A stretch of 64,000 nt of DNA. Source: an uncultured Bacilli bacterium (GTDB lineage Bacteria; Bacillota_I; Bacilli_A; RF39; UBA660). Shown here one piece after another: positions 6,431 to 42,230 of this stretch. Under the pieces are notes generated by a model. That model did not search any database. It saw only the letters and a list, made by a program, of their open reading frames with translations, and had not been told where the DNA came from. The stretch covers positions 6,355 to 70,354 of the forward strand of contig CAJTKV010000001.1 of the NCBI GenBank assembly GCA_910577075.1, in the 5' to 3' direction. A program made the translations under genes and the position numbers. Position 1 is the stretch's first letter. The number at the start of each line of letters is the position of its first letter.

Positions 6431-6462
6431 TAAAAAAAGTTGCAAGATTAACACCTTGCAGC
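6431..6462 (-). terminator. Rho-independent terminator overlapping the SDR 3' end
   Basis: gttgcaag-attaacac-cttgcagc hairpin followed by T7 on the minus strand. Spans the stop codon at 6448. Confidence 0.5.
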
Positions 6463-7185: not shown

Positions 7186-7241
7186 CTCATATCCTCCTTA
7201 TATATTTATATATTAACCCAAAACCCTTACTTTAATCAATA

Positions 7242-7268
7242 CAAAAAGAAGTAATTTTTATTACTTCT
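7242..7268 (-). terminator. Rho-independent terminator
   Basis: agaagtaat-tttt-attacttct 9-bp stem overlapping the stop at 7267. T5 run follows on the minus strand. Confidence 0.6.
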
Positions 7269-8431: not shown

Positions 8432-8623
8432 ATTTTTTCTCCTTTTCTAAGCTCATTTTAAAACATAAATAGTAGTAAAACTATCAACTTTCAGTTGCAT
8501 ATAAAATAAAAGAAGTAAACTTTTAAAATGTAACCTATAAAGTGGACTCTTAAAAAAAGAGAGACCTACTTTATAGGTTTTTATTATGTCTTATTGTATA
8601 ATATAAGAAAGTTGGTGGTAATA

Positions 8624-9064: not shown

Positions 9065-9096
9065 AATATATTATTGATAGATATGAATTAAAAGGA

Positions 9097-9945: not shown

Positions 9946-9989
9946 ACTCTCTTTTTTTATTTAGTCCTTGACATTGGGTACATTTTATT

Positions 9990-11135: not shown

Positions 11136-11217
11136 CTCTTATAAAATTATACCATATATTCTAGCATTACTTTCTGTTGTTGTCTATAACAATAAAACAT
11201 TTAACCAAACACCACTA

Positions 11218-12979: not shown

Positions 12980-13131
12980 ACACATCTCTCCCAAAAAAAT
13001 TATAACACTTATCGCGGCATTTTTCGATACATCAAAATAAATGTAAGAAAAAGTTAAGAATTGTTTAACAAAATCTTAAATTTCTAAAACTTATTGTGAA
13101 TTATAATGAACTTATGAAAGGAACAAAAGTT

Positions 13132-24902: not shown

Positions 24903-25499
24903 CTATAAATTTATCTTTACTTCGGGAAACAACTCATATAAATCATAACCCAATAAATCATCAAAAAATTTCTTTAATTTATACGTTTCTTTCATATGAT
25001 ACTGAGTGGTTTGATAAGCACCCTTCCTCATAACCATCTCAACTAATCGCTTATCAATTGTATATATCTCATCGGCACACATTAAATCGGCCAAACAGAC
25101 CATTTTTTCATATAAAGTATACTCATGATTTTTGACAAAATCTGTACGAAAAGAAGTAGCTTTTGGTATACCTCCTGCTGTACATAGATAGTCATTATTT
25201 AGATATGAATGCGTCAAAGCAATATTACAATACTCAATATCATATCCTTTTTCTTTCATATAATTATAGCCTTTAATTTCATGTCCATGATCGTCGGCAC
25301 TTATTTTTCCAATATCATGCAAAAGAGCTAAGGTCTTGGCTTTCTCCACATCTGTATCATATCCTTTTTCCTTAAATGCGCCAGCCAATCTCTCAACGAC
25401 TGATGCTACATATATAGAATGTACAATCCATCTATCGGAGCTCTTTTTACCACGCTCACCATTCAATATTTTTAATATATCCTCACTCTTTGGAATCAT
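24903..25499 (-). CDS. HD/HDIG-domain phosphohydrolase
   Basis: Start moved to MIPKSEDIL (GGTGGTGA RBS). LALLHDIGK HD motif. Overlaps the upstream gene by 17 nt. Confidence 0.8.
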   Translation of the reverse strand: MIPKSEDILKILNGERGKKSSDRWIVHSIYVASVVERLAGAFKEKGYDTDVEKAKTLALLHDIGKISADDHGHEIKGYNYMKEKGYDIEYCNIALTHSYLNNDYLCTAGGIPKATSFRTDFVKNHEYTLYEKMVCLADLMCADEIYTIDKRLVEMVMRKGAYQTTQYHMKETYKLKKFFDDLLGYDLYELFPEVKINL

Positions 25500-26925
25500 T
25501 TTCACCACCGAGCTTTCTAAACAAATCATCATATATTTGATACGATGATAGATATACTACCATATCAGCTTTCCTATTTTCATAATTACCTTCATAAGCC
25601 AAGTCCTTATTTATCATAGGAACATCTACAACTTTTCTTACAAACCATCTAGGATTAATCATATAGGCAATCACAGCAATATCCCAAATCGGCCATCTAT
25701 CCCGATGCTGATATGTTTTCGTATAATAATCAAAGCCATCAATTAAATATTTGTGTAGAGGATTATTGATATCCATCTTATGCTCTAATTCATAAACTGT
25801 AGTTTCCAAATTAGATGCAACCCCCTTACATGGAATTATCGTCAATTTAACATCTGATGAAAAAATTTCTTTTACGGCATCTACATCTTTAAAGTTTGCC
25901 TCATGCAAATTATTCGGATAGAAAAAATTATGTCCACCCAACCAAATAATCTCAATCCTATCAATTATTTTAGGCTCATATTTTATTGCCAATGCCACAT
26001 TCGTTATCGCTCCAATAGCCATAATATAGGTTTTTTCATTTTTTAAGGCAATATCTATTATTTTATCAACTGCTTCATTTCTTTCACTATAGCCATTTAA
26101 CATATAATTAGTTGAGCCCCTAAATATCCTATCGAAGCTCTTAAGACCCAATAAATCACATATTTTTCTCGCTTCTTTATAACTATTTTCTATTCCCGAA
26201 TCATCATAAAAGCGCGTCTCTTTTCTAAATGGCGCGATGGTTATTGCCTCGACATCAAAAATATCCAGCGACTTAAACATATAAGCAATAGCAAACTGAT
26301 CATCCGATTCATTATAAGTATCCGTATCCAATATAACTTTATATTTAGATTTCCCATAATTACAAACTATATCATATATTTCTTCCCAACTATGTGCTCG
26401 CTTTATATAATCATTATCCCTATTGAAAGGCATATCCATAATTATGGGATACAACCCAAATTTATAGGCATCTATACAATTTTTAAGCGAATCATCAATC
26501 AATATTGGAATATTATTTTTTAAACAAATCTCCGTCTTATCATGGACATTATAGGCATTTGTCAGAAATAGTTTATCATATGGAATATCGTATTTTGCTA
26601 GCCATTCTTCCGTCATTTTTCTAGGATTACTATATTCTCCATTATCTCTTCCACTTATAATATAAATTTCATAACCCTTATCTCTTAACATCTTTATATA
26701 TTTAGATGCCTCGGGAATAGGCTCAAAATCCTGAGCAATTTTTTCTAAATTATTTTTATAGAACTTCTTTTCTTCTTCACTAGTCCAATTAAATTTGCAT
26801 CTTACTTTTGGACTATCATTAACTATTCCTGGTCCACCAATTTCCTCATCATGCTTTATATATGCTTTTAAAAGTACTTCATCAAAATTCGAAATAACAT
26901 TGTCAATATCTAATCCGATTCGCAT
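25483..26925 (-). CDS. Fusion protein: 5'(3')-deoxyribonucleotidase-like HAD domain + inosine/uridine-preferring nucleoside hydrolase domain
   Basis: N-terminus MRIGLDIDNVISNF (DxD) and ILIDDSLKN. From about residue 195, VILDTDTYNESDDQFAIAYM is the IUNH DxDxxxDD signature. Confidence 0.8.
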   Translation of the reverse strand: MRIGLDIDNVISNFDEVLLKAYIKHDEEIGGPGIVNDSPKVRCKFNWTSEEEKKFYKNNLEKIAQDFEPIPEASKYIKMLRDKGYEIYIISGRDNGEYSNPRKMTEEWLAKYDIPYDKLFLTNAYNVHDKTEICLKNNIPILIDDSLKNCIDAYKFGLYPIIMDMPFNRDNDYIKRAHSWEEIYDIVCNYGKSKYKVILDTDTYNESDDQFAIAYMFKSLDIFDVEAITIAPFRKETRFYDDSGIENSYKEARKICDLLGLKSFDRIFRGSTNYMLNGYSERNEAVDKIIDIALKNEKTYIMAIGAITNVALAIKYEPKIIDRIEIIWLGGHNFFYPNNLHEANFKDVDAVKEIFSSDVKLTIIPCKGVASNLETTVYELEHKMDINNPLHKYLIDGFDYYTKTYQHRDRWPIWDIAVIAYMINPRWFVRKVVDVPMINKDLAYEGNYENRKADMVVYLSSYQIYDDLFRKLGGENDSKE

Positions 26926-28481: not shown

Positions 28482-29223
28482 CTATAAAACTAAAGTACCG
28501 CTTATTACATACTTTTCCCCATTTTCACATATTTTCTCTATAACTTCATCTTTGATAAAATATATTTCTCCGAAAGCCGTTATACTGCTATCATCAATCA
28601 AAATATGACTTCCATCTGTTATAGCATAAATACATCTCTCATTAGACTCTCTTTCAATATATCTTCTTTGATATATTTCTTTCTCCGTTAGACCATCTTC
28701 ACTCAAAATAAAATGAGGTTCAATATTAATATCCGTAACTCCTAAACCATCAAAGTAAATCGGTTCTGAGTTTTCCATCTCTTCAGGACTATTAAAAACT
28801 GAAGAAGACATATTTAAAGCACCAGCACTTTGTCCCATCAAGATTCCATCAAAATTCTTAAGTATATCTTTTAATCCTATTTTTTCAAAAAATTGATGTT
28901 GCGTATATGTATCTCCTCCACTTAGATAAATAAAATCGGCATTCTCAACCATCCTTTTGGCATCTAGGGCATTTCTTTCATCTAATGTCTGATAATCTAA
29001 AAATGTTATTCCCGATAGTTTTAATGTTTCAAATAACAATGCCGAATATTCCGAAACTTTCTCAATATCTTGATAATCGGATGCTACAAATAATATAGAA
29101 TTATTTTTATTAAGATGCTTTTTTATTTGGTCAACTAGTCCATTCGTATTATCAATTTCCTTTGCAACCTTTTTTCCATCAACTTTTTGATAATGATTTA
29201 AATTACTCGTAAAAATTAATCAT
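28482..29223 (-). pseudogene. Peptidase S51 (dipeptidase E-like), N-terminus frameshifted at a homopolymer
   Basis: YLSGGDTY and nucleophile GQSAGALNM. The frame stays open upstream of the called TTG start (LIFTSNLNHYQKVDGKKVAKEID..). An ATG at 29223 with a GAGGA RBS is out of frame by one base across the A5 run 29211-29215. Confidence 0.6.
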
Positions 29224-29228
29224 ATTCA

Positions 29229-30305
29229 TCAATCCTCACTTAATATTTTTGTATCAACTGTTATTGTCTTGTTACCATAATCAACTATTGTCTTAGCATC
29301 ATAGGGAATTATACATCTTGGTACAGAATGACCAAAGTTAACATTATATAAAACAGGTGTATCAATATCTTCAAAAACCTTACTTATTACTTGTTTATAT
29401 TCTTCGTAATATACTTCATCAATTGGCTTACCAAATATTACCCCTTGAACTAAACTTAGTATATTCTTTTTCTTAAAGTAAGATAACATCTCTTCCAATT
29501 TTTCTGGTGTTGATTTTTCATCACTAGTCTCTAAAAACAATATTTTTTTCTTCCACTCATCATCACTAGGTAAAATATTATATTTTTGATATACAGCTGC
29601 TGCTTCTTCATATCTTCCACCTACATATGCTTCATATATACTTTCAATACAACCACCATATAGCTTACCAGTCCTTTTTCCCTCACCATTTAAAATTTCA
29701 AAGCCATGAGTTTCTTTTACCATTTCTCTTGGCTTACCCAACTCATCTACTCCATAACTCTTTCTATCCATATACCAAACAGGACTAGAAGTTATCTCCA
29801 TCTTATCTAGTGCCTCAAAATAATAATCAAAATACTTTTTCGTATAAGGTAACATTTCACTGTCTAATTCCGCAATATCGACAAGTAGACAAGGACCATA
29901 AAATGTTGATAACCCCAATCTATTCAACATTAAATGATTATTTGTCGTGTCAGAAAAGCCCGTAAATATCTTAGGATTCTTTTTTACTGCCTCGATAAAC
30001 TCTTCATCTTCCATGAGATAGGGAATTGTTTTATAAGTATCAAATCCTCCAATGGCGTTTATTATTCCCTTTATTTCTGGATCCATAAATGCCTGCTTTA
30101 AATCATGAGCTCGAGCTTCAGGATGCGCCTCTAAATAATCCATATCTTTTAAAGCATTATCCATTATTACGGGAATAAGTCCCATTTCCTCTAATCTTTT
30201 AATTCCTAAATCTAATTCATGTTTACAAAAAGGCATACCTAACAAACCTCTTGATAAACTAACTATTGCTACCTTATCTCCTTTTTTTAAACTTTTTGGT
30301 TGCAT
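29229..30305 (-). CDS. LD-carboxypeptidase / MccF-like S66 peptidase
   Basis: KGDKVAIVSLS start, nucleophile elbow TGFSDTT, C-terminal NFGHSVP. Confidence 0.85.
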   Translation of the reverse strand: MQPKSLKKGDKVAIVSLSRGLLGMPFCKHELDLGIKRLEEMGLIPVIMDNALKDMDYLEAHPEARAHDLKQAFMDPEIKGIINAIGGFDTYKTIPYLMEDEEFIEAVKKNPKIFTGFSDTTNNHLMLNRLGLSTFYGPCLLVDIAELDSEMLPYTKKYFDYYFEALDKMEITSSPVWYMDRKSYGVDELGKPREMVKETHGFEILNGEGKRTGKLYGGCIESIYEAYVGGRYEEAAAVYQKYNILPSDDEWKKKILFLETSDEKSTPEKLEEMLSYFKKKNILSLVQGVIFGKPIDEVYYEEYKQVISKVFEDIDTPVLYNVNFGHSVPRCIIPYDAKTIVDYGNKTITVDTKILSED

Positions 30306-30392
30306 AATATCATCTCCAAATTTATTATATCATCTGTTTTTATTTTCTTCATCTTTTTCTTTTAACTATCTAACTATATTTCTCAATTTAAA

Positions 30393-31388
30393 TTATTTAT
30401 ATAACAAACTACAAATATTTATTCTAGTTTCATTATTATGCTGACCATTTATATAATATTTACTTAAATCTTCATATTCCGAATTTACCGTATCTTCAAA
30501 AGTAACTTTATAAAACAATCCTCCCTTGCATCTAGTATAGCTTATAACTGCATGATCATTTTCCACCTGCTTAACACTTTCATCCAATAGTTCTTTATAT
30601 ATTTTTATCTTTTCTTTTATTAACTTCTTTATATCATTATTATTTAAATAATCTAAAACAGCATATTGTAAAAATGCCGAAGTACACAAATCAAAACTGT
30701 TTTTATAACTATATAATACATTCATAAAGCCATCCGAGCATATAATATATCCCACATTAATAGATGGACTTATTAACTTGGAAAATGTTCCCAAATAGAT
30801 GATATTTTTTCCATTATTCATTTCATATAATGTTCTATATTTATAATCAGTATAATTAATTAAGCTATAGGGATCATCCTCAATAACTAAGACATCATAT
30901 TTGTTGATAATATCCAAAAACTTACTTCTTACTTCATTAGACCAAGCATATCCAGTTGGATTATTAAAAGTTGGTGTTACATAGATTGCTCTCGGTTTAT
31001 ACATTGCTAGAATGTCTTCTAGTTCTTGTAAGTCGAAGCCATCTTCTCCTAAATCACAGCCAAGCAAATTAATATTTATCTTTTTAAAGACATCAAGAGC
31101 ACCAAAATAAGTTGGCTGTTCCACTAGAATTGTATTTCCTTCATTAAATAAGGCATAAGCTAGCAAATTAAGAGATTGCTGAGAACCACTAGTTATTATT
31201 ATATCTTTATAGTTAACATTGTAATCCCAAATAGATTTTAAAAAATCCGCAATACTCTCTCTTAATTCTTTCATTCCCTTCGGACTAACATAGGTATTAA
31301 AATTAATGCCACTATCGACAACTGTTCTAATACTTTTATTTATCCCTTCACTATCTATTAAATTGTATATACCGAGCGATTTATTCAT
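30393..31388 (-). CDS. PLP-dependent aminotransferase (class I/II fold, MocR-type catalytic domain without HTH)
   Basis: TPTFNNPTG, EDDPY, LGTFSKLISPSINVGY (Schiff-base Lys). Confidence 0.85.
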   Translation of the reverse strand: MNKSLGIYNLIDSEGINKSIRTVVDSGINFNTYVSPKGMKELRESIADFLKSIWDYNVNYKDIIITSGSQQSLNLLAYALFNEGNTILVEQPTYFGALDVFKKININLLGCDLGEDGFDLQELEDILAMYKPRAIYVTPTFNNPTGYAWSNEVRSKFLDIINKYDVLVIEDDPYSLINYTDYKYRTLYEMNNGKNIIYLGTFSKLISPSINVGYIICSDGFMNVLYSYKNSFDLCTSAFLQYAVLDYLNNNDIKKLIKEKIKIYKELLDESVKQVENDHAVISYTRCKGGLFYKVTFEDTVNSEYEDLSKYYINGQHNNETRINICSLLYK

Positions 31389-32023
31389 TACTTCCTCCTA
31401 CAAATATAAAGTGCACTTTTGCCATTATCCTTTATTTCTATATCAAAATAAGGTTCTAAAATACTTCTATAATCCTCCTCACTTATCCAATCAAAAACCG
31501 TAAAATGTGGTTCAAATCCTTCCCTTATTTGCACATGAGATACCTTATTATCCACTAAATATGAAATCTCTAAATAGCTTATATCATCAATAACATATTC
31601 TTTTATCATTGGCTTTTCACTAGGCCTACTAGAAAACGTATTAAAAATAAATAAGCCATTCTTTTTTAACATTTTGCTAAACTTTTGAATATCAATATGC
31701 AACATCCAATAATTAACTGCTTGTTCACAAAAGACTTTATCAAACTCATCTTCATTGCCATTAACAAATTCTTGAACACTCATATTTTTAACATTAACAC
31801 CTAAGTCTTCTAAATCAGCAGGAATCATATCTTTCTCCTGATCGACATAAGTAACATCATTACTAAGCATCTTTAATCTTCTTGTTAATCTTCCGTTTCC
31901 TCCACACAAATCCAGCACTTTATCATCATTCTGAATATTACCTTCGTCAATTAAGTAATCTACCCCCTTTTTAAAATACCTTTTATATAATTTTTCATAA
32001 ACATCAAATTTGGGATATTTCAT
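31388..32023 (-). CDS. Class I SAM-dependent methyltransferase
   Basis: VLDLCGGNGRLT motif I. TAATG overlap with the aminotransferase start. Confidence 0.8.
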   Translation of the reverse strand: MKYPKFDVYEKLYKRYFKKGVDYLIDEGNIQNDDKVLDLCGGNGRLTRRLKMLSNDVTYVDQEKDMIPADLEDLGVNVKNMSVQEFVNGNEDEFDKVFCEQAVNYWMLHIDIQKFSKMLKKNGLFIFNTFSSRPSEKPMIKEYVIDDISYLEISYLVDNKVSHVQIREGFEPHFTVFDWISEEDYRSILEPYFDIEIKDNGKSALYICRRK

Positions 32024-32026
32024 AAA

Positions 32027-32548
32027 TCATACCTTCTTTCCACTTCTTTTAACTACTCTCCCTGGTATACCTACTACTGTCGTATTAGCATCCACACTTT
32101 TAAGTAGCACGGCATTTGCCCCTACTTTTACATTGTCGCCAATTGTAATATTTCCAAGTATTTTAGCACCACATCCAATAAATACATTATTTCCAATTGT
32201 TGGATGCCTTTTACCTGTTTCTGATCCAATTCCCCCTAAAGTAACTCCATGAAACATTGTTACATTATCGCCAATTATCGCCGTTTCACCAATTACCACA
32301 CCAATTCCATGATCGATAAATAATCCCTTGCCAATTCTTGCCCCTGGATGTATTTCTATTCCCGTTTTTCTCTTGGCTTTTTCGCTAATATATCTAGCTA
32401 TTAAAAAGTGCTTCTTTTTATAAAAATGATGAGCTACTTTATAATAAATTAATGCTTTAAATGAAGGATATAACAAGACTTCCATTGTACTTCTAATAGC
32501 TGGATCTCTCTCCTTAATGACTTTTATTTGTTCTTTGATATATCCCAT
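32027..32548 (-). CDS. cysE: Serine O-acetyltransferase
   Basis: [43 protein letters not shown] hexapeptide repeats. Confidence 0.9.
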
Positions 32549-32560
32549 ATCAAACCCTCC

Positions 32561-33232
32561 TTATAATTTATTTCCCTTTTTATCAAACAAATATATAACT
32601 CCATGATATTTAATATTAAATGATGTTTGATTATCTCTTATTGAATCCTTAACTGTTCCCGGAAAAGCATATTCTTGATACTTTAATTTTGAATCAAAAT
32701 AATGATTAATATGGACAATTACATCGACATCACTGTTTTCAAATAAATGAGCAAGTAAAGGTGCATTTAAAGTAGCTTTCTTCCCGCAAACATAAATAGT
32801 ATGCTTTTGATGATCGACATTTCTTACAATGGTATACTCCGATAAATCTTCTTTTCCTCTAATAGTCGTAATAAAACTCTTATCATCTATTCTAACTGCT
32901 ATACTCCCAAATATATATTTATCTCCATAGACATTTTTTATAAATAATTCCCTATACCTAGACATATATTCTCTAAATACATCTAATCTTTTCTCAATAT
33001 CAACTTTCTCCTTAACACGTTCTGTATGATAATATTCATCTCTATTGGCATCATCAATATACCCTACTTCATCTTTAATCTCAAAGACGCTTTTCTCCTT
33101 AGTTAATACATACTTGTTCTGAGCTGTTTCCATTATAATAAATTGCCATTTTTCGTCTAATAATTCTTTATATGTTTCATCGACGATGTCATCATTTATA
33201 TTATCTATATGTTTCTTTTTATACTTAATCAT
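32561..33232 (-). CDS. Hypothetical protein with divergent class II aldolase/adducin-like C-terminal half (tentative)
   Basis: GSIAVRIDDKSFITTIRGK..KATLNAPLLAHLF..VIVHINH..YHGV loosely parallels GNISvR..ITpSG..KPSSE..H..VvHtH..NHG. 8-nt overlap with coaB. Confidence 0.4.
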   Translation of the reverse strand: MIKYKKKHIDNINDDIVDETYKELLDEKWQFIIMETAQNKYVLTKEKSVFEIKDEVGYIDDANRDEYYHTERVKEKVDIEKRLDVFREYMSRYRELFIKNVYGDKYIFGSIAVRIDDKSFITTIRGKEDLSEYTIVRNVDHQKHTIYVCGKKATLNAPLLAHLFENSDVDVIVHINHYFDSKLKYQEYAFPGTVKDSIRDNQTSFNIKYHGVIYLFDKKGNKL

Positions 33233-33965
33233 ATATCATCATCTCATTTATCAACTTTTCGGCAATATCTTCTTTTCCTGAAGCCTCAATATAATCATCC
33301 TCACCTATAATATATGCTAAATGATTGCCATTTCTTATATTAGATAAATCATTTGCAACAACTAAATCACATTTATTCTTATTTTTTAACTTGGTAGCCA
33401 CATCGATTAATTCATCCTTTGTTACGCCATCTAATAATTTGAATCCTACAAGATATGTCTTTGGACTTAAATCCTTAATCATCGAAATTATCTTTGGCGT
33501 TCTCTTTAATTTGATCATCAAATCATCCTCATAAGAAGAAATCTTAGTAGCGATAATTGCATTACTCTTATCTGTAATATTATCGTATAATGATAATTTC
33601 TTATTGTTTTCTATTGTATCAATAATTCTTTTAGCTGTTGTAACAAAATCCACCGTATAATCTGAGACCGCCATAGAATGAATAAAGTAATCGATTTTTT
33701 CTGTCGTAAGTAATTTATCTACTGCTATCTTTAAATCATTCGTATCTATAATCTCTACAATCTCGATTTTTTCATGACTCGGTTTTAGCGCTGTCTTCGA
33801 AGCAATATAATAGATCTTTTCTATCTCATCACCTTTTAATTCCATTATCTTATTGGCAATTACCACTCCAAGTTTACCTGTACTGCTATTGGTAATTTTT
33901 CTAACATTATCAATTCTTTCACTTGTGCCACCTGCCGTAATTATTATTTTATATTTCATATCCAT
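33225..33965 (-). CDS. coaB: Phosphopantothenate-cysteine ligase (monofunctional, streptococcal type)
   Basis: IITAGGTSERIDNVRKITNSSTGKLG, HSMAVSDY, KRTPKII, GFKLL, VVANDL. Collinear with the streptococcal CoaB layout as I recall it. Confidence 0.85.
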   Translation of the reverse strand: MDMKYKIIITAGGTSERIDNVRKITNSSTGKLGVVIANKIMELKGDEIEKIYYIASKTALKPSHEKIEIVEIIDTNDLKIAVDKLLTTEKIDYFIHSMAVSDYTVDFVTTAKRIIDTIENNKKLSLYDNITDKSNAIIATKISSYEDDLMIKLKRTPKIISMIKDLSPKTYLVGFKLLDGVTKDELIDVATKLKNKNKCDLVVANDLSNIRNGNHLAYIIGEDDYIEASGKEDIAEKLINEMMIYD

Positions 33966-34791
33966 CCTTCTTTCTTAAAGCTTTTTCGCTTTCTTTTATT
34001 CTATATAGACCGCATAAATACTCACAGTTAATATAAAGTCCGTCTAATAATTCATCAATAATTCGCTTTTTTTCTTCTTTATTCTTTATATCTTCATCAT
34101 CTAAAGTAACTTTCGAACTTCCATAAAGTATTCTCAATTTTTCTCCTAATTTAAACTTAACTTCTATAAAATCATTTGAATTCAGATAACCATTTCCAAA
34201 TGAAAGAGTAAATGTTGATAATTTATCAAATACTTCACCATCGATTTTGGAAAATAAAACCGTTGTTCCATTGCCAAATATAAATTTGTTTCTTAACTCC
34301 CTAAAGCATTCCAAGAATAAATCATTATTACGTACTATATCTAAGCATTCTTTTATTTTTTCCCTTTCTATATCCATGCCCTTACTTTTAAATTCTCTTG
34401 AAAACCTTTTTTTGCCATTATCGACATTGGCAAAATAATCATCGCCATCTCTTCTGACAAAATTTACTATAGTATTCCCGTCTTTAAAGGTTTCAAAAGA
34501 TGGAGCAATTACCTCGAGAATTAAGAGCGCAAAATCACCACTTATCGAATGATAGCCATATAATACCTCTCTTCCCAGTGTCTTTAAAATATCCAAAAGT
34601 TGTTCACTTTCTAAATCATATGCCAAATATGCAGTATTAAATTTATTCACAATATCATACAAACTAACTGAATCATCATAATTTATATCTCTTTTACGTC
34701 CATTGTTTATAACTGTGCATACTTCATAAGGATCTTTTACTGTCAGTGTTGTAACTAGATTAAAATCATAAATAAAATTTGTTAAATCCAT
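33949..34791 (-). CDS. Hypothetical protein X (280 aa) embedded between coaC and coaB
   Basis: Start moved to ATG 34791 (AAGGAGG RBS 7 nt upstream, 1 nt after the coaC stop). 3' end overlaps the coaB start. No recognisable motif. Confidence 0.6.
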   Translation of the reverse strand: MDLTNFIYDFNLVTTLTVKDPYEVCTVINNGRKRDINYDDSVSLYDIVNKFNTAYLAYDLESEQLLDILKTLGREVLYGYHSISGDFALLILEVIAPSFETFKDGNTIVNFVRRDGDDYFANVDNGKKRFSREFKSKGMDIEREKIKECLDIVRNNDLFLECFRELRNKFIFGNGTTVLFSKIDGEVFDKLSTFTLSFGNGYLNSNDFIEVKFKLGEKLRILYGSSKVTLDDEDIKNKEEKKRIIDELLDGLYINCEYLCGLYRIKESEKALRKKDGYEI

Positions 34792-34792
34792 A

Positions 34793-35338
34793 TTATTCCT
34801 CCTTAAGCAGTTCATTTAGACTAGCAATTATCTTATCCTTATCTGCCAGTTTTCCAACAGCTTTATATCCACAAGCTAAATTACCACAGACAGGATCAAT
34901 AAAATGATATCCATATTTTTTAAGTTTTTTTATATTATCTTGTACAATGCCATTTTCATACATTCCATTATTCATTGCTGGCGCTATTAAAACTTGGGAT
35001 TTTGTTGCCATTACCGTCGTCGAAAGCATATCATCGGCTATACCATTAGCTAACTTGCCAATAATGTTTGCTGTTGCTGGTGCTATTAAAACTAAATCAG
35101 CTTTCCTAGCTAGACTTATGTGTTCAACATCAACATGATCTTTTTCATGAAACATATCCACAACTACTCTACTCTTAGATAAAGTTTCCAAAGTAAGTGG
35201 TGTAATAAACTTTGTAGCATTTTCCGTCATTATAATATCGACATTTGCGCCCTCTCTTTTCAAATGATTTATAACATCACATATTTTATAACAAGCAATT
35301 CCTCCTGTTACTCCAATTAGTATATTCTTATCTTTCAT
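34793..35338 (-). CDS. coaC: Phosphopantothenoylcysteine decarboxylase (HFCD flavoprotein)
   Basis: ILIGVTGGIACYK, LIAPATANIIGKLANGIADD, APAMN. Confidence 0.85.
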   Translation of the reverse strand: MKDKNILIGVTGGIACYKICDVINHLKREGANVDIIMTENATKFITPLTLETLSKSRVVVDMFHEKDHVDVEHISLARKADLVLIAPATANIIGKLANGIADDMLSTTVMATKSQVLIAPAMNNGMYENGIVQDNIKKLKKYGYHFIDPVCGNLACGYKAVGKLADKDKIIASLNELLKEE

Positions 35339-35430
35339 GCTCTTCCTCTCTCTTTCTAATTACATTGTATTCTATTTTTGTTGATAAGTTAAATATATAA
35401 ATGTTATAATATTAATAAGGAGAACTTATA

Positions 35431-36297
35431 ATGAATATAGACTTAGAATTATATAAAACTTTTTATGTTGTTGCAAAGCATAAACACATGACTAAAGCCA
35501 GTGAAGAATTGCACATATCCCAGCCAGCGATATCCCAATCTATCAAAAAATTGGAAGACCAACTAGATGGCACTTTATTTTTAAGAAGCAATAAAGGCAT
35601 GGAACTTACCGAAGAGGGAAAAATGTTTTACGAATATGTCAAAGGTGCTTTAGAACTTATAGATAATGCCGAAAAGGAATTTACATCTTTTAAAACCCTT
35701 GATAAGGGAGAAATAAAAATTGGATGCTCGACTACCCTTACCAAATTAATATTAATGGATTCCATTGAAAAATTTCATCAAGACTATCCCAACACCAATA
35801 TCAATATTACAAACGAACTTACGAGCAAGTTAATCGAAGATCTAAAATTGGGAAAATTAGACTTTGTCATTTTTAATGAAAGTAACATTAAGGAATCCAA
35901 TGTTAGTTTGAAAAAAATCAAAGAACTAAAACAAGGATTTATCTATAATCCAATATACTTCAATGATGACGTAAAATCTTTTAAGGATTTAAATAACTTT
36001 CCCTTAATACTTCAAAGACCAGAATCTAACAGTCGTAAACTTCTTAATCACTTTGCCCTTCAAAATAACGTAAATTTAATTCCTAAAATAGAAACTGTCA
36101 GTCAAGAATTAGTTACAGAATTTACTAATATTGGTTTGGGTATTGGTTTTGCCATAATTGATCTAGCCAAAAGGAACTTTAAAAACTTAAAAGAACTTGA
36201 AATAAATAAATCTATTCCCAAAATAAATATTTATTTAGCTACTAACAAGAATACTCTTTTAACATTTGCTAGCAAAAAGTTTATCGAATATTTATAA
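35431..36297 (+). CDS. LysR-family transcriptional regulator
   Basis: HMTKASEELHISQPAISQSIKKLEDQLDGTLFLR. Divergent from coaC across a 92-bp intergenic region. Confidence 0.9.
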   Translation: MNIDLELYKTFYVVAKHKHMTKASEELHISQPAISQSIKKLEDQLDGTLFLRSNKGMELTEEGKMFYEYVKGALELIDNAEKEFTSFKTLDKGEIKIGCSTTLTKLILMDSIEKFHQDYPNTNINITNELTSKLIEDLKLGKLDFVIFNESNIKESNVSLKKIKELKQGFIYNPIYFNDDVKSFKDLNNFPLILQRPESNSRKLLNHFALQNNVNLIPKIETVSQELVTEFTNIGLGIGFAIIDLAKRNFKNLKELEINKSIPKINIYLATNKNTLLTFASKKFIEYL

Positions 36298-36315
36298 CAT
36301 ATAAAAATGTCAGTA

Positions 36316-37161
36316 TCAATCTACTGGCATTTTCTTTAATTTACCACAACCTAAGTGAAATTTTTTTCTCTTTATCAATCTATCTTTTATTTTTCTCTGC
36401 AAACTTGTCTCTTCACTTAAGACATCATAGTTTTCAACACTGCTTATTCCATATACATGGTTGAGAATATCATCTGTACACTCTTCACCCGCAGATATTT
36501 TAAATAAACTTTGAAATTTGGCAATATTTGATTCTTCATCGACAAGTTTTAATATTTCTTTACTAAGCAACCAAGAATTACAATAATAATTATACTTATC
36601 CAATCTAAAGTACTTGTGTATATAAGATTTTGACTTTTTAAGGGAATCTAATACTTCATCATAATCTAATTTAGTTCCTCCGAAGATATGTATTTTTATA
36701 TCTTTACCGGACAATCCATACTGCAATCTTCCTACTTCAATTATCTTAATACGAATAAAATAAAGTCCCCATAGTAGCTGAGAAAATCTTATTCCATCTA
36801 ATTTTCTAATCCATATATCATTAGTAAGACATTCTCTTACTCTCAATTTATGAAGACGTACCTGTTCATCATCAAACAAATGTCCCTTCATGTTGATCAT
36901 ATGCAATTTATATCCCAATAATAGAATAATATTAGTAACCCATAAATCTTCAAAATTAAAAATCTGAGTAATACTCTTAATCTTCCACATATTTGTAAGA
37001 TCATCACTATATAAAGGGGATAATACTGAATAAAACTGCATTACTAAATCATTTTCAGTTAAATAATCCACACATTTTAAACATCTATTATAATAATCTT
37101 CATCATCAATCTCATAAAATTTTAAAGCCTCTTCAATATCTTCAATAGTTATTCCTATCAC
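36316..37161 (-). CDS. Acyltransferase-domain protein (NAT_N/GNAT_C-type), tentative
   Basis: GRLQYGLSGKDIKIHIFGGTKL..CNSWLLSKEILKLVDEESNIAKFQSLF matches my memory of this Firmicute family (RLQ..iHIP.g..L..SWLL.p.L...SNI..F). Confidence 0.5.
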   Translation of the reverse strand: MIGITIEDIEEALKFYEIDDEDYYNRCLKCVDYLTENDLVMQFYSVLSPLYSDDLTNMWKIKSITQIFNFEDLWVTNIILLLGYKLHMINMKGHLFDDEQVRLHKLRVRECLTNDIWIRKLDGIRFSQLLWGLYFIRIKIIEVGRLQYGLSGKDIKIHIFGGTKLDYDEVLDSLKKSKSYIHKYFRLDKYNYYCNSWLLSKEILKLVDEESNIAKFQSLFKISAGEECTDDILNHVYGISSVENYDVLSEETSLQRKIKDRLIKRKKFHLGCGKLKKMPVD

Positions 37162-37162
37162 T

Positions 37163-37732
37163 TTAATTATCTCCTAGCATCAAAAACTTATATATTTCTC
37201 CCCAATTGTTAACAACCTTAAAACATCTAGCATCATCAACTTTATCGGAAGCAGCGTTTTTAAAATATATACCTGTTATATTTTCTTTAGCAGCATTCTT
37301 GCATATATCGATATCATCATCGACTATATAATCACATTTTTCACTCTTCAATCTTTCAATTTTGCTATGCTCATTAAAGAAAACTTTTAAATTGTCAATT
37401 CCTGCATTTTTTAACTTTTCTAGACCATAATTAGTCTCTTCTTCACTTCTACTTGTTATAACTATAATCTCAAAATTATTCATAAGTTTTTTCAAAACTA
37501 ATTCTACACCTGTCATAAGATTTGCCGTTGATAAAACTGTTGGAGCGTTTTTCTTGTAGAAATCTTTAAGTTCCTCTTCTGACCAATCATATCTTTTTTG
37601 AAATAATCTTGGCGAATTATCAATTATATTATCTCTGCCAAATTTATCGACATCATGCATTTCAGCATATACTCTATACAAATTTTCTGAATCAAATACA
37701 ACTCCATCTAAATCAAGCGCTATCTTCTTCAT
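37163..37732 (-). CDS. HAD-type 5'-nucleotidase-like hydrolase
   Basis: Start moved to MKKIALDLDGVVFD (DxD motif; GAAGGGAAAG RBS). Also YIVDDDIDIC. Confidence 0.7.
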   Translation of the reverse strand: MKKIALDLDGVVFDSENLYRVYAEMHDVDKFGRDNIIDNSPRLFQKRYDWSEEELKDFYKKNAPTVLSTANLMTGVELVLKKLMNNFEIIVITSRSEEETNYGLEKLKNAGIDNLKVFFNEHSKIERLKSEKCDYIVDDDIDICKNAAKENITGIYFKNAASDKVDDARCFKVVNNWGEIYKFLMLGDN

Positions 37733-37754
37733 ATTATCTTTCCCTTCAATTTTT

Positions 37755-38501
37755 TTACCTTTTCTTTCTTCCCAGTAATACTGCCAAAAGCAAACCAATA
37801 AATACTAATAATGCTCCTACACCAATTATAATATATTTATCATAATTTTTCTTTTCTACTATTTGGGAAATTTCTTTTTCCTTTTGCGTACTTGTTGTTG
37901 TACTAACTGATGTACTAATAGAAGCTGTCATGCTAGTTGTTGTGCTATTACTTGTCGTCGTTTCACTACTAGTTGTATTATCCGTCATTACCTTAGATGA
38001 CGTGGACTTCTTAGTTGTCGTCGGTTTCTTTGTCGTCGTCGTTGTTGTTCTTGGAACATCTAAATAGATGAAACCATAATCTGATGTTATTGCTTTTACT
38101 TCATCCACAGATATAGTTTGATTGGTTGCTATACCCGTAGAGTTCATTGCACCACCCTCATCATAGGTAATATTATTTCCATCTACTTTTGTTACAAATG
38201 CCACATGTCCACCAAATCCGTCACCATAATTCCAGATCATAAGAGAATTAACTTTTGGTTCTTTTCCCGTTGCAAATCCCGCCTTCTTTGCCTGCTTATG
38301 CCATGTCCAGACATTATACCAAGTAGGTAATTCAATTCCCGTTCTCTTCTTCGTTTCGCCCCAAGCATACCAAGTACAATTTACTATCTTTCCAAATCCT
38401 AAATCTTCATAATGCGGATAAGGATTGCTCTTCGCAGAAACGGAAGTTACTCCTACTATACTAAACACAAAAATTGCTAAAAACCACTTCATCTTCTTCA
38501 T
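37755..38501 (-). CDS. Secreted CHAP-domain peptidoglycan amidase/endopeptidase with Thr-rich stalk and C-terminal TM anchor
   Basis: Start moved to MKKMKWFLAIFVFSIVGVTSVSA signal peptide. NCTWYAWGE (Cys) and GGHVAFVTKV (His). TTTTTKKPTTTKKSTSS stalk. IIIGVGALLVFIGLLLAVLL plus GRKKR. Confidence 0.85.
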   Translation of the reverse strand: MKKMKWFLAIFVFSIVGVTSVSAKSNPYPHYEDLGFGKIVNCTWYAWGETKKRTGIELPTWYNVWTWHKQAKKAGFATGKEPKVNSLMIWNYGDGFGGHVAFVTKVDGNNITYDEGGAMNSTGIATNQTISVDEVKAITSDYGFIYLDVPRTTTTTTKKPTTTKKSTSSKVMTDNTTSSETTTSNSTTTSMTASISTSVSTTTSTQKEKEISQIVEKKNYDKYIIIGVGALLVFIGLLLAVLLGRKKR

Positions 38502-38579
38502 TTTATCACATCCAATTTTATTATAACATATACAAAATAAATATATAAAAAGAAAATGCGCCAATTAAGCGCATACAAT

Positions 38580-40592
38580 CTATCTATTAGTTAATTTCAA
38601 ATGTTTATCTATTTCCTCTATAGAAGTATTAGAGCATGGGAATAGTTCATCTGCCATATCTCCCATTCGTTTTTCCGCCCCAGTAATAAATTCTTCCATA
38701 GAATAAAAATCTTCAATACCTTCACATAATTTTTTCGTTTTTAATGCTTTTGGATTTTTATCAACCTCAGAAGCAAGCAACGACCATCTTTGATAAGCTT
38801 CTCCATTTTTTTCTCTTCTTTGAGGACCTAAATATTTATCTAACCAAGCTATTTTTAAATCCGTATGTAACTTATTAAACCATAGTAATAAATCATAATT
38901 ACTCTTAGATAATTTATAATTTTCTTGATTTAAATTCTTCATTAGTTCTTTAACTTTTTTATATTGTGCATTATACCAAGTTGTCATATAAGTTCCATCA
39001 AAAAAACAATAGTCCTTACTCTTAGGTAAGACATTTCCATATTCTATAGTCCTCTCATAATATGCGGATCTCTTATCTTCAACATTTGGTAAATCTATTC
39101 CCCTTAAATAATTTTCAAGATAAGCAAGCATCTCAATGACATACATATCATCACTTGAGATTTTATAATCTTTATTCTTTTTATATAGTCTAAGTTCATT
39201 CTTAGCTATTTTTAACATCTCTTTATACCAATCACGCAAATATGTTCCATCTTTATATTTTTCATCTGGATCTTCTAAATATCCCGAATTGGAAATAATT
39301 CTATCACAATAAATATCTGTTTTATCTCTATTACTTAAATAAGCTGTTTGACAAATAGATTCAATATAATTATTTAAATCAGTTATATTACCACCAAATG
39401 AGACATTTTGTAGGCCAACTATACCGTTTCCTGTTTCTCCCTTTTTCTCATAATTATCTCGCAAATGTAAAAAATTCAAAGAACTGATTCTGGTAAGATT
39501 CCCCCCTAAATCCAATATTCTAACCGGCATCTTATTTCCCAAAGAACAACCTCTACCAAACTTTTGTAAAAAGTCACGATAGGCATTTGTTTTATTGGCA
39601 AAAATAATTTGCATTTCGCCATCTGTATGAAAGCCTTCTGTCATCTGTCTTATTGATAATAAAACTTTACTATTGCCATCTCTAAACTCATTATTTTTAA
39701 ATTCATTAATATTCTCTGAATTTTCCTTTTTTGGCAATCTACACGAAGTCTTATATATATCCAATGTTGGAAACTCTCTTCTTAATAATCTTTCCTTAGC
39801 TAACAAATCATTAAAATCTCGACAGTAAAACATTATTTTAGTTTGATGCAAATTCAAATATTTTTTTAATATATGAACTATACCTGCTTCTTTGTTTAAA
39901 TAATCAACTAATTGATCAATCTGCTCTTCACTGATATTTTCTCCTACTCGTTTTTTTAATATATCTATTGCTTCTTCACGAGTATTTCGCGATAGAACAA
40001 AAAATTCGTCATATATAGGTATCGAAAACAAGTCGTTTGCAAACGCTTCATCAAGAGAATAAAAAAATGAAACATTGCCATCGTATAAGACATTTGCCAT
40101 ATTGACTCTCTTTTTTAATTCTTCATCATTATCATCATTTACTATTTCAAAATCCCACTGCAAAATTGGGGTTGCCGATAATCCCAAGTACTTTCTTTCT
40201 CCATCGTCATTAAACATTTTGGAAATTGATTCATATCTCTTCTTTTTGGCAATGGCATGAAATTCATCACAGACAAACAAATCAAATGTAGGAACAATTC
40301 CCTTCTTTATCATTTCATGAAGTTGAGCATAAGTATAAAATTTTAAATCGGCAAAATCCTTATCCAAATCATAACCCATATTGGTTAAATGTTCTTGTAT
40401 TTGTTCTAAATGGAGCTGTCTAGGTGCTGCAAAAACAATAGCTTTATCTGCATAATTCAACATAGCTGAAGTAGCAATTGCTGATTTTCCTATTCCCATT
40501 GTCGCGATAACGCATGAACGTTTCTTAAACTCTAAATCATTTAAAACATTTTCTATTGCTTCTTTAATATGCGGATAATCAAAAATATTCAT
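38580..40592 (-). CDS. SF2 helicase with C-terminal helicase-associated (HA) repeats
   Basis: ATMGIGKS (Walker A), CDEFHA (II), GLSATP (III), QKFGRGCS (VI). The C-terminal third has repeated DGTY..WY and W..L motifs. Confidence 0.85.
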   Translation of the reverse strand: MNIFDYPHIKEAIENVLNDLEFKKRSCVIATMGIGKSAIATSAMLNYADKAIVFAAPRQLHLEQIQEHLTNMGYDLDKDFADLKFYTYAQLHEMIKKGIVPTFDLFVCDEFHAIAKKKRYESISKMFNDDGERKYLGLSATPILQWDFEIVNDDNDEELKKRVNMANVLYDGNVSFFYSLDEAFANDLFSIPIYDEFFVLSRNTREEAIDILKKRVGENISEEQIDQLVDYLNKEAGIVHILKKYLNLHQTKIMFYCRDFNDLLAKERLLRREFPTLDIYKTSCRLPKKENSENINEFKNNEFRDGNSKVLLSIRQMTEGFHTDGEMQIIFANKTNAYRDFLQKFGRGCSLGNKMPVRILDLGGNLTRISSLNFLHLRDNYEKKGETGNGIVGLQNVSFGGNITDLNNYIESICQTAYLSNRDKTDIYCDRIISNSGYLEDPDEKYKDGTYLRDWYKEMLKIAKNELRLYKKNKDYKISSDDMYVIEMLAYLENYLRGIDLPNVEDKRSAYYERTIEYGNVLPKSKDYCFFDGTYMTTWYNAQYKKVKELMKNLNQENYKLSKSNYDLLLWFNKLHTDLKIAWLDKYLGPQRREKNGEAYQRWSLLASEVDKNPKALKTKKLCEGIEDFYSMEEFITGAEKRMGDMADELFPCSNTSIEEIDKHLKLTNR

Positions 40593-40677
40593 AAAGTCAT
40601 GCCCCCTTAATTAATCCTATATTTTAAGGTTTCTATTCTCTAAAGTCAATAGTTCATAACAATATATTTTAATCTAA

Positions 40678-40707
40678 ACAAATAAAACACCAACTATTAC
40701 ATTGGTG
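40678..40707 (-). terminator. Rho-independent terminator after the NUDIX gene
   Basis: caccaa-ctattaca-ttggtg hairpin followed by TTTTATTTG on the minus strand. Lies in the 129-bp gap before the helicase gene. Confidence 0.5.
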
Positions 40708-40721
40708 CTTTCATTATATCA

Positions 40722-41129
40722 TCATATTAATTTTAAATCCTCTAGCATTAGTTTATGATCATAGGCTAGTTCCATTTCTCTTATTTCCTCTGGCTTAAAC
40801 CATTTAACTTCATCGCATTCGCTTACTGCTGAAGGAGTCCCACTTATAATATCACAAAAATGCGGAAGGCAAATCATTGTTTTAGTTGGATGTCTTCCGA
40901 TTTTATCATAATATCTTCCCGTGAATCGGATATTTCCTATCTCGACACCAATTTCCTCCATAGCTTCTCTTTTTAAAGCATTTTCGATTTCTTCGCCCCA
41001 TTCAACTTTACCAGCTATTAATCCCCATAATTGTTTATAGGCACCTCTTGTACGATGCATTAAAAGTATTTCACCCTTATCATTTCTTATAATTGCATCG
41101 ACACCTATATATGGATGGTCTGTTTGCAT
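40722..41129 (-). CDS. NUDIX hydrolase
   Basis: Nudix box GKVEWGEEIENALKREAMEEIGVE. Starts 10 nt after the upstream gene. Confidence 0.85.
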   Translation of the reverse strand: MQTDHPYIGVDAIIRNDKGEILLMHRTRGAYKQLWGLIAGKVEWGEEIENALKREAMEEIGVEIGNIRFTGRYYDKIGRHPTKTMICLPHFCDIISGTPSAVSECDEVKWFKPEEIREMELAYDHKLMLEDLKLI

Positions 41130-41138
41130 AATATCCCT

Positions 41139-42230
41139 CTATTTCCTTTTTTCTTGTATTTCTCTCGTCAAATCATGCATTATTGTACAATATTCACAAA
41201 GAAGACATCCTTCATTTTTAAATATATCTAAATCATTTTCTAACATTTTTATAGCCGCATATTCACTACATTCATAAAAAGTTTCTGTATCACATTCTTC
41301 TTTGCCTGCAAACTCAGAATTTTCTGAAGGTCTGAACGCCAATATACATGGATGTATTCCATTCATCGTCAATTTATCAATTCCCTTTTTGATTGTATCA
41401 ACTGGTGCAATACCACATATTAATGTACTGCCAACTTTGTTGCCACCTAGTAATTCATTTGCATAAATTCCTCTTTTAATATATTCATCTATACCAATTG
41501 CGCCCTTACCTGGACAAATCTCTCGTCTTAACTTTTCGTCATATATCTCAATATTAAAGCCAAATGAAGTTGCTCCAACATCAATCAATTTCTTTATTTC
41601 TTCTCTAGTTGGCGGAACCATTTCCACCCAAATGGGAATGTCTTTGGATTTTTTTCTGATTTTATCTATTATATTTATAAAATTTGCTGTAGATCGTGGA
41701 AGCGGTAAATATGTACCTCCTCCAAGACAAACATGATATTTCCTTTCATCCTTGGCAAAATCGACTACTTCGGCAATCTCATCAGGAGTAGACTCATTAA
41801 CTCTTTCTCCGCATCCACAAAACTTACACTTCAAATTGCGCTTGTTATAATCACATCCTGTATAAGTCATATGGAGATACTTCTCCCCTTCATCGATAAA
41901 TATCTCCGATGTCAATCGATTTGTTGAAGTCTTTTTCTCATACCACTTTGGCGGATCAATAAAAGCAACATCACAGATAATATTGTCATTAATATCAGAT
42001 AATGAAAGTTTATCTAAACTGCCAACTAACTTGTAACCGACATTTTCCGTGTTTTCATATAGCACATTTGCTAAAACAGATACTTTACTACCTAATTTGA
42101 TCATTATCCCAAAATATCTTCCCTGTTTATGCATTTCACTAGGATTTTGGTGCTCATATATCTGTTCCGCCAAATCATTAGCTAATATTCCATGGCAAAT
42201 TATATCTGCCTTTACTCTTATTAAATCCAT
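41139..42230 (-). CDS. Radical-SAM-like enzyme with non-canonical Cys motif
   Basis: TGCDYNKRNLKCKFCGCG (CX8CX2CXC, not CX3CX2C), LGGGTYLP (GGE-like), GATSFGFNIEIYD, STLICGIAP. C-terminal CLLCEYC. About 110-aa unknown N-terminal domain. Confidence 0.55.
   Translation of the reverse strand: MDLIRVKADIICHGILANDLAEQIYEHQNPSEMHKQGRYFGIMIKLGSKVSVLANVLYENTENVGYKLVGSLDKLSLSDINDNIICDVAFIDPPKWYEKKTSTNRLTSEIFIDEGEKYLHMTYTGCDYNKRNLKCKFCGCGERVNESTPDEIAEVVDFAKDERKYHVCLGGGTYLPLPRSTANFINIIDKIRKKSKDIPIWVEMVPPTREEIKKLIDVGATSFGFNIEIYDEKLRREICPGKGAIGIDEYIKRGIYANELLGGNKVGSTLICGIAPVDTIKKGIDKLTMNGIHPCILAFRPSENSEFAGKEECDTETFYECSEYAAIKMLENDLDIFKNEGCLLCEYCTIMHDLTREIQEKRK

Follow-up and report, generated by a model that had tools for sequence, protein, structure and literature searches.

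Coenzyme A (CoA) synthesis is regarded as a closed five-step pathway and serves as a drug target. In most bacteria, the bifunctional CoaBC (Dfp) couples a CTP-dependent ligase to the enzyme of the neighbouring step, such that cysteine ligation is followed by decarboxylation. Streptococci and enterococci carry monofunctional CoaB and CoaC, encoded by two separate genes. LanD-type peptide decarboxylases (EpiD, MrsD, CypD) have in common with CoaC the flavoprotein fold and an oxidative cysteine decarboxylation that depends on flavin mononucleotide (FMN). Within this HFCD family, a substrate-clamp Cys residue tells phosphopantothenoylcysteine decarboxylase (PPCDC) from the LanD-type enzymes, and PPCDC yields reduced (saturated) cysteamine, which LanD enzymes do not. 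Here we describe a locus of an uncultured Bacilli bacterium (GTDB lineage RF39, UBA660), in which a CoaC-like and a CoaB-like gene stand in a seven-gene minus-strand operon with the order coaC, X, coaB, Y, cysE, methyltransferase (MT) and aminotransferase (AT), divergent from a gene for a LysR-family regulator. The operon lies on contig CAJTKV010000001.1 (assembly GCA_910577075.1), in a stretch of 64,000 nt that is referred to below as the window; all coordinates are window positions.

We tentatively favor reading the locus as an accessory operon under LysR control, which moves horizontally and encodes an uncharacterized small-molecule pathway based on CoA-type chemistry. Comparison with other gut bacteria showed that the seven-gene operon is a lineage-specific elaboration of a compact cassette, in which a LysR gene diverges from CoaC-CoaB-Y-MT-AT. 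A literature search found no description of this cassette, or of the fusion between a CoaB-like domain and Y that is presented below, and a paper on gut micronutrients (PMC6593275) deals only with the canonical CoaBC.

CoaC and CoaB of the operon

The CoaC-like protein (34793..35338, minus strand, 181 aa), which resembles the FMN-dependent PPCDC, matched PF02441 with an E-value of 9e-36. Its score against TIGR00521 was 229.1, above the cut-off of 219.7, and its score against the streptococcal model coaC_strep (TIGR02113) was 195.9, below the cut-off of 261.4. Its closest solved relatives are the CoaC half of Mycobacterium smegmatis CoaBC and human PPCDC, and alignment with these two showed that the catalytic His (EHISLARKAD), the PxMNxxM motif (PAMNNGMY) and the substrate-clamp Cys (GNLACG) are all kept.

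The CoaB-like protein (33225..33965, minus strand, 246 aa) is of the streptococcal type of monofunctional phosphopantothenate-cysteine ligase. It matched PF04127 (E 7e-32) and aligned over its full length with the CoaB of Streptococcus pneumoniae (2gk4, E 8e-42), and fell narrowly under both curated equivalog cut-offs (PRK06732, 238.1 versus 265; coaB_strep TIGR02114, 210.3 versus 217.2). Alignment with 2gk4 and with CoaB of E. coli and M. smegmatis showed that GGTSExIDxVRxITNxSTG, AVSDY, KISS and ANDL are retained. Because the motifs of both enzymes are kept, CoaB and CoaC are very probably able to ligate cysteine to an acid and then to decarboxylate the product. The acid used by CoaB would be 4'-phosphopantothenate or a close analogue.

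With their two separate genes, and the same folds and catalytic motifs, the pair resembles the streptococcal and enterococcal enzymes. It differs from them in its scores, with CoaB below both CoaB cut-offs and CoaC below coaC_strep though above TIGR00521, and in its setting, being embedded with Y, MT and AT (together with X and CysE) under a LysR regulator, in a cassette that is mobile and at times lacks CoaC or CoaB.

The kinship of CoaC with the LanD enzymes raises the question of whether the locus is a gene cluster for a ribosomally synthesized and post-translationally modified peptide (RiPP), with the flavoprotein as a LanD-type peptidyl-cysteine decarboxylase. The flavoprotein does match CypD, EpiD and MrsD weakly, and MT weakly matches a daptide methyltransferase. 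However, the flavoprotein matches far better as PPCDC, and it adjoins a strep-type CoaB. The cluster has no lanthionine synthetase, protease or exporter, and no precursor peptide. We consider a RiPP cluster highly improbable, and this candidate was rejected because the flavoprotein has the clamp Cys that is absent from LanD enzymes, and because a precursor-peptide ORF would not fit into the junctions of the operon, which range from -17 to +12 nt.

The same two enzymes could also belong to an auxiliary or alternative route to CoA, an explanation that we regard as possible but doubtful. CoaB and CoaC would then be a genuine phosphopantothenate-cysteine ligase and PPCDC, while the role of Y, MT, AT and X would be to provide 4'-phosphopantothenate or 4'-phosphopantetheine, or to salvage either of them, starting from a precursor that is not the standard one. 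They might, for instance, stand in for pantothenate kinase, open a new access to the phosphopantoate or beta-alanine moiety, or, in the version of phages and of bacteria of the candidate phyla radiation (CPR) presented below, perform a decarboxylation that is independent of flavin. In line with such a route, both enzymes score near the equivalog models with all motifs kept. Pantothenate kinase, CoaD and CoaE were not found among the 40 window proteins scanned, 30 of which lie outside the operon; for the kinase, this agrees with the earlier note, which had seen none in the window. The scores that set the pair apart from the streptococcal enzymes count against this route, and the cassette includes a methyltransferase, while we know of no CoA step that requires one.

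A conserved, mobile cassette and its control region

To define the cassette, one genome per species was taken, which yielded 38 Y loci that were mapped by phmmer; in 34 of them, Y is a free-standing protein. In these 34 species-level loci of gut Firmicutes, the core cassette consists of a LysR gene divergent from CoaC-CoaB-Y-MT-AT. The run Y-MT-AT is present in 32 of the 34, and the remaining two are cut by contig ends. CoaB is present in 32 loci, directly upstream of the run or, in one case, downstream. CoaC was found in 27 loci, as was the divergent LysR gene (27/34). X occurs in just two of the 34 (L018 and L025), and CysE in just one (L009). MT homologues adjoin the Y domain in all complete cassettes, which makes MT the dedicated and constant partner of Y, and in two loci (L026 and L041) the genes for Y and MT are fused.

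The hosts are gut metagenome-assembled genomes labeled Bacilli, Clostridia, Erysipelotrichaceae or Tenericutes, from mouse, chicken, rabbit, ruminants and humans, and the window itself was found in mouse gut metagenomes and isolates. The gene arrangement is kept in dozens of species, confirming that it is beyond chance. The genes outside the cassette vary from species to species.

In contigs of the Ca. Onthocola type (L001-L004), the cassette lies on a segment of 8.6-9.1 kb (about 4060-13130 in the locus), which is 99.8% identical between contigs that differ in their outer flanks. The segment carries a CHAT protease, a 168-aa protein, LysR, the five-gene cassette, TnpV and a large serine recombinase, and one of the flanks holds conjugation-type genes (PcfK/PcfJ). 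The presence of the cassette on a 9-kb, near-identical segment together with a serine recombinase and TnpV indicates that it is accessory in this lineage. No relative of Y was found among the PLSDB plasmids.

Reduced forms of the cassette were also observed. Locus L024 has LysR and CoaB-Y-MT-AT without CoaC, L030 has LysR and Y-MT-AT without CoaB and CoaC, and L022 and L032 have CoaB-Y-MT-AT without CoaC or LysR. Y-MT-AT is therefore the constant and specific part, and CoaB and CoaC are apparently dispensable or supplied in trans. A mobile, accessory cassette from which CoaC, or CoaB together with CoaC, can be missing argues against a housekeeping role. Unlike a canonical CoA operon, the cassette is patchily distributed, and the scanned window proteins include no pantothenate kinase, CoaD or CoaE. 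For the alternative route to CoA introduced above, the reduced cassettes are a point in favor. They suggest that housekeeping enzymes can stand in for the missing CoaC or CoaB, so the substrates may be the same, and in L032 a nucleotidyltransferase gene (PF01467) overlaps the end of AT, although this gene is not conserved elsewhere. Mobility, LysR regulation and a patchy distribution speak against such a route.

Within the window, the LysR gene on the plus strand and the seven ORFs on the minus strand were confirmed to have the coordinates given in the earlier note, and the junction lengths, when recomputed, agreed with those reported there. They comprise a 1-nt gap between coaC and X, a 17-nt overlap of X with coaB, an 8-nt overlap of coaB with Y, gaps of 12 nt between Y and cysE and of 3 nt between cysE and MT, and a 1-nt overlap of MT with AT (TAATG). 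A purine-rich, Shine-Dalgarno-like stretch lies 5' of each start codon. No terminator-like hairpin was found within the operon or after AT, and the next gene, for an S66 LD-carboxypeptidase, lies 87 nt beyond the last gene of the operon. The sole terminator-like hairpin of the region 29000-36500 is at 36304-36333 (plus strand), directly 3' of the LysR stop codon and between convergent genes.

The LysR-family regulator (35431..36297, plus strand) contains the HTH_1 and LysR_substrate domains, and reached no specific NCBIfam equivalog. Its orthologues in the 27 cassette loci in which it is divergent were found with E-values of about 1e-140 to 1e-154. The 92 bp between the LysR start and coaC (35339..35430) form the predicted control region, with divergent promoters and a probable LysR box. 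A lysR promoter-like site, TTGATA-18-TATAAT, is located at 35381-35410. The motif ATTATAACAT..ATATATTTTACTTATCAA in this region is near-invariant in about 28 species, whose enzymes are just ~55-60% identical. Such conservation of the 92-bp region, across species whose enzymes have diverged to this extent, supports a conserved unit of regulator, operator and operon, in which LysR would bind the conserved box. LysR control of the operon, as the earlier note had proposed, is thus plausible, given the divergent LysR gene of the 27 loci and the near-invariant intergenic region. A single sequencing run flagged as RNA gave a 42-kb contig at flat depth, and is uninformative on expression.

Protein X (33949..34791, minus strand, 280 aa) is optional, its gene being inserted between coaC and coaB, and its fold was not recognized. 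Its start is the ATG at 34791, rather than that of a 288-aa ORF, because all homologues (40/40) begin at the same MDLTNFIYDFNL. X had no match in Pfam, NCBIfam, PHROG or PADLOC, in keeping with the lack of a recognizable motif reported earlier. The AlphaFold2 (AF2) model is confident (pLDDT 90), and Foldseek returned nothing at E<1e-3 for it in the PDB or BFVD. The X family numbers 47 proteins with few invariant residues (FGNGTT, FGN and one Asp), and has no relatives in the IMG/VR viral contigs.

The linkage of X to CoaB and CoaC extends beyond the window. Three cassette types have X inserted between CoaC and CoaB; one is that of the window (also in L018 and L025), and L069 and L074 represent the other two. 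In L070, X comes after a CoaB-like gene under LysR, and in L073 LysR is its only partner. No linkage of X to CoaB or CoaC is seen in L005-L008, L071 and L072. Loci L070 and L005-L008 are syntenic chromosomal sites (Zn peptidase, cysteinyl-tRNA synthetase, guanylate kinase), at which X is preceded by LysR and the CoaB-like gene in the L070 lineage, and by an HD-domain gene in the L005-L008 lineage. X can therefore persist when the CoaB-like gene is absent. Taken together, these contexts identify X as a genuine, if optional, companion of the LysR/CoaC/CoaB front end. The earlier suggestion that X supplies a missing CoA step (kinase, salvage or transport) does not agree with its absence from most cassettes, which also weighs against the alternative route to CoA, or with the homologues that stand alone. 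Downstream of the X-containing cassettes, UvrA-like, P-loop and thioredoxin reductase genes were seen once, in L069, and a 554-aa protein in L074 could not be related to Y, to MT or to Y2, an aldolase-like protein described below.

The Y domain and its CoaB-like fusions in huge phages and CPR bacteria

Protein Y (32561..33232, minus strand, 223 aa) comprises a stub that resembles the C-terminal part of CoaB, followed by a class II aldolase-like metal domain. It had no match in Pfam (E<=0.01, including PF00596), NCBIfam, PHROGs or PADLOC. Its AF2 model (pLDDT 91) was matched by Foldseek to YgbL/OtnC, FucA and APIP/MtnB, with probabilities of 0.97-1.0 and E-values down to 4.5e-4, at TM-scores of just 0.34-0.44. 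At the N-terminus, ~70 aa are similar to the C-terminal portion of CoaB structures. The predicted structure hence bears out the weak class II aldolase-like pattern that had been noticed in the sequence.

Relatives of Y are few and unnamed. A collection of 5.8 billion proteins held 301, all unnamed or annotated as 'hypothetical', and just 309 came from an exhaustive HMMER search across 1.84 billion representatives. Most of the diverse members among them are 350-420 aa long, with the Y region at the C-terminus. In these longer proteins, a CoaB-like domain is fused to Y; such fusions occur in loci L043-L046 and in about 800 database proteins, the names of which are either hypothetical or 'phosphopantothenate-cysteine ligase'. 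In the CoaB-like part, which matches PF04127, the Asn and Lys positions of the ligase are retained, and the Y part contains an invariant HxH...H triad, KATLN and RGK. Alignment of residues 13-223 of Y with residues 152-369 of the fusion gave an hhalign probability of 100. This profile-profile alignment indicates that the gut Y is a truncated fusion, which keeps the last ~45 CoaB-like residues.

Like the bifunctional CoaBC, the fusion joins a CoaB-like ligase to a second domain; in this case the partner is class II aldolase-like rather than a flavoprotein. Y and the fusions share with the class II aldolase/adducin family (FucA, AraD, MtnB/APIP, YgbL/OtnC) the fold, a His triad, which reads HxH...H in the fusions, and the glycine and serine-threonine motifs that resemble a phosphate site, and PF00596 is reached by some fusions and by Y2, though not by the Y of the window. 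Y is set apart from this family by its TM-scores of about 0.4, by the added N-terminal CoaB-like stub, and by changes at the active site. H174, H177 and H210 of Y align with the HxH...H of the fusion family, with the spacing HxxH in the gut Y, and Asn156 aligns with an invariant Asn of the fusions, which, judged by eye, occupies the position of Glu73 in FucA.

The fusions are found in CPR genomes, for example Kaiserbacteria and Yanofskybacteria, and on IMG/VR contigs, many of them 200-550 kb long, as well as in a 485-kb phage in GenBank (LR745208.1). In 28 of the 30 phage or CPR loci examined, the fusion adjoins a homologue of the MT of the window, and neither CoaC nor an aminotransferase is present. 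In CPR genomes, the pair sits among ordinary chromosomal genes. The pair of fusion and MT is the older module, and the gut Y descends from a CoaB-like::aldolase-like fusion. The tie between Y and CoaB-type enzymes that the earlier note had drawn from a single operon is strengthened by synteny, by the CoaB-like::Y and Y::MT fusions and by the independent co-occurrence in phages. The older fusion relatives with the same MT make guilt-by-association sound for Y, and the recurrence of X between CoaC and CoaB makes it moderate for X. The further proposal that either protein is a missing kinase or transporter is unsupported by folds or distribution. For Y, a missing CoA step (kinase, salvage or transport) would have to reside in an aldolase-type metal fold, among whose members we know of no kinase, and the gut protein has lost the nucleotide-binding part of the fusion. 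Both points argue against the alternative route to CoA as well.

No third component of the phage module was detected, as the ORFs upstream of the fusion share no homology with each other, and only a single phage locus has a cupin that belongs to the 'cysteine dioxygenase' PHROG. In three related phages (L049, L059 and L062, IMG/VR contigs of 66-548 kb), genes for nicotinate phosphoribosyltransferase (NAPRTase), NAD synthase and an RNA ligase-like protein surround the pair. NAD salvage and reconstitution modules are known as cofactor-supply genes of phages, and the pair of fusion and MT is likewise found among auxiliary metabolic genes. Unlike these modules, the conserved pair includes no NAD enzyme. 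Only one phage clade shows the link, and NAPRTase and NAD synthase are therefore not counted in the module. On a 260-kb phage-like contig (L066), genes for an acyl carrier protein (PP-binding), an AcrVA2-like protein and adenylosuccinate synthase lie near the fusion (5648-6064 and 10006-12207), with that of the acyl carrier protein 1 kb from it. The acyl carrier protein gene, and the cofactor-supply setting that the NAD salvage genes lend to the phage module, would fit a route to CoA. Along with the nucleotidyltransferase of L032, however, these neighbors are hints of a cofactor flavor and are not conserved.

A distant relative of the fusion family (E 1e-10), termed Y2, is a protein of 357-378 aa with an N-domain of no recognized family and PF00596. 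It follows CoaC-X-CoaB under the same LysR in the gut locus L069. An 88-kb phage contig of Firmicutes type (L065, 4026-8741) carries its own strep-type CoaC and CoaB with Y2 between them, and no methyltransferase nearby. A trio of CoaC, CoaB and an aldolase-like protein thus recurs independently of MT and AT. The IMG/VR search gave no relatives of Y2.

The frequency of the fusion-plus-MT pair in huge phages is also compatible with a role in phage-host conflict, in which the module would make or destroy a small molecule of anti-phage defense or counter-defense, and the gut cassette would be a bacterial derivative that resides in mobile or defense islands. NAD salvage genes adjoin the pair in some phages, and the AcrVA2-like gene lies near it in L066. 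The mobile gut element has a CHAT protease, with Schlafen/AlbA-type genes beside the element, and genes for a ResIII helicase, a NUDIX hydrolase and radical SAM proteins are near the operon in the window. We nevertheless think this explanation quite unlikely, since PADLOC matched no system, its sole match being that of a generic methyltransferase domain with mad2, and no effector or sensor component is evident. The pair is found among ordinary chromosomal genes in CPR bacteria, and control by a LysR-type regulator that responds to a metabolite is commoner in metabolism than in defense.

A bolder proposal gives the older module a biosynthetic role of its own. The Y domain, a CoaB-type ligase and a dedicated MT might form a previously unknown route that makes or remodels a phosphopantetheine-type cofactor, serving huge phages and CPR bacteria as a two-gene supply module and expanded in gut Firmicutes with CoaC, AT, X and CysE. 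Examples would be a flavin-independent processing of phosphopantothenoylcysteine, or a new way of building the phosphorylated acyl part. We regard this proposal as unlikely.

A possible pathway and other features of the window

MT (31388..32023, minus strand, 211 aa) is an S-adenosylmethionine (SAM)-dependent methyltransferase that matches generic class I methyltransferase families in Pfam; PHROGs and PADLOC gave generic methyltransferase matches only. The family has conserved motifs of its own (QAVNYW, FIFNTF and one His). The closest solved relatives of its profile are ToxA, phosphoethanolamine N-methyltransferases and glycine-sarcosine N-methyltransferase (E 1e-9 to 1e-5), with the matches limited to the SAM-binding half.

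AT (30393..31388, minus strand, 331 aa) is a short class I aminotransferase of the pyridoxal phosphate (PLP)-dependent type (PF00155, E 2e-25), which is conserved at about 336 aa in 32 of the 34 loci. Its closest solved relatives are archaeal enzymes of the KAT/ArAT/LysN type (E 1e-45). The alignment begins at about residue 69 of these relatives, showing that AT lacks the N-terminal arm, and the loss of this arm may make room in the active site for a bulky substrate. AT contains an SK motif (TFSKL) at the place of the PLP lysine of this aminotransferase family.

CysE (32027..32548, minus strand) is a serine O-acetyltransferase that scored above the cut-offs of both TIGR01172 (226.6 versus 210.65) and EpsC NF041874 (229.2 versus 150). 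It is a lineage-specific insert, present at this position in the window and in L009 only.

On the basis of these assignments, the following pathway can be proposed for the accessory operon. CoaB would activate a phosphorylated acid (4'-phosphopantothenate or a close analogue) as the acyl-CMP and join it to L-cysteine, and CoaC would then oxidatively decarboxylate the cysteine and reduce the product, giving a cysteamine (pantetheine-type) thiol. Y might catalyze a metal-dependent step of the lyase, decarboxylase or isomerase type beside the phosphate-bearing end. MT would methylate a heteroatom, most likely nitrogen, and AT would convert a keto into an amino group or the reverse, either on this scaffold or on a precursor of it. 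Y, MT and AT could thus either modify the cysteamine-amide scaffold or build its acid part. CysE would raise the supply of cysteine in this lineage only, and X would be an optional helper of the CoaC/CoaB pair, with helper, scaffold, extra enzyme and protection factor as candidate roles. As product, one would expect a modified metabolite of the phosphopantetheine-like or cysteamine-amide type rather than bulk CoA. Among the options raised by the earlier note, its alternative, a cysteine- or pantetheine-derived metabolite that is methylated and transaminated, is the one that fits best.

The observations in favor of this pathway are the near-canonical motifs of CoaB and CoaC, the conserved cassette and control region, the fusions and their adjacency to MT, the association of Y2 with CoaC and CoaB, the accessory nature of the cassette, the presence of CysE, the fold of Y, and the relatives of MT and AT. 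Several points weigh against it. The substrate assigned to every step is a deduction; CoaB and CoaC are canonical enough that they could be plain CoA enzymes; and Y, MT and AT could act either before or after them. Because Asn156 appears to replace the catalytic Glu of FucA, and the His pair is spaced HxxH instead of HxH, the activity of Y may be unusual or lost. The phage and CPR module lacks CoaC and AT, and its product may therefore differ from that of the gut cassette. Finally, the cassette contains no exporter or obvious consumer of a product. The probability left over from this pathway and its three rivals (a route to CoA, phage-host conflict and a RiPP cluster) is assigned to other readings.

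A widespread, regulated and mobile cassette reuses two steps of CoA synthesis together with three or four uncharacterized proteins, and it is linked to a two-gene module with about 800 database members, including those of huge phages and CPR bacteria. If worked out, the product would give a function to a family labeled phosphopantothenate-cysteine ligase or hypothetical, could uncover a thiol or cofactor of gut anaerobes that was not known before, and would explain why giant phages and ultra-small bacteria keep the fusion-plus-MT pair.

Several other features of the window were recorded. An 80-aa ORF at 32010-32252 (plus strand) is antisense to cysE and MT, lies wholly within these confirmed genes and is most likely no gene. 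Upstream of LysR, the run at 36316-42230, which may be an island, encodes a GNAT_C protein, a HAD phosphatase, a 670-aa ResIII/DEAD helicase, a NUDIX hydrolase, two radical SAM proteins, and a secreted protein that combines a CHAP domain, a linker rich in Thr and Ser, and a hydrophobic tail at the C-terminus. A response regulator (12287-12994, minus strand) scored 348.9 bits on the VanR-ABDEGLN model, for which the cut-off is 350, and the adjacent ORF (11218-12306, minus strand) is possibly its sensor kinase, which would make the two a van-type two-component system. An IS3-family transposase (9097-9945, plus strand; 251 bits versus a cut-off of 160) has a 156-aa ORF just upstream (8594-9064). 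The G+C content, which is about 30% for the window as a whole, falls to 0.257 at 8001-10000. A 480-aa protein (25483-26925, minus strand) fuses an NT5C-type 5'-nucleotidase to an inosine-uridine nucleoside hydrolase, an unusual architecture for a two-step conversion of nucleotide to base.

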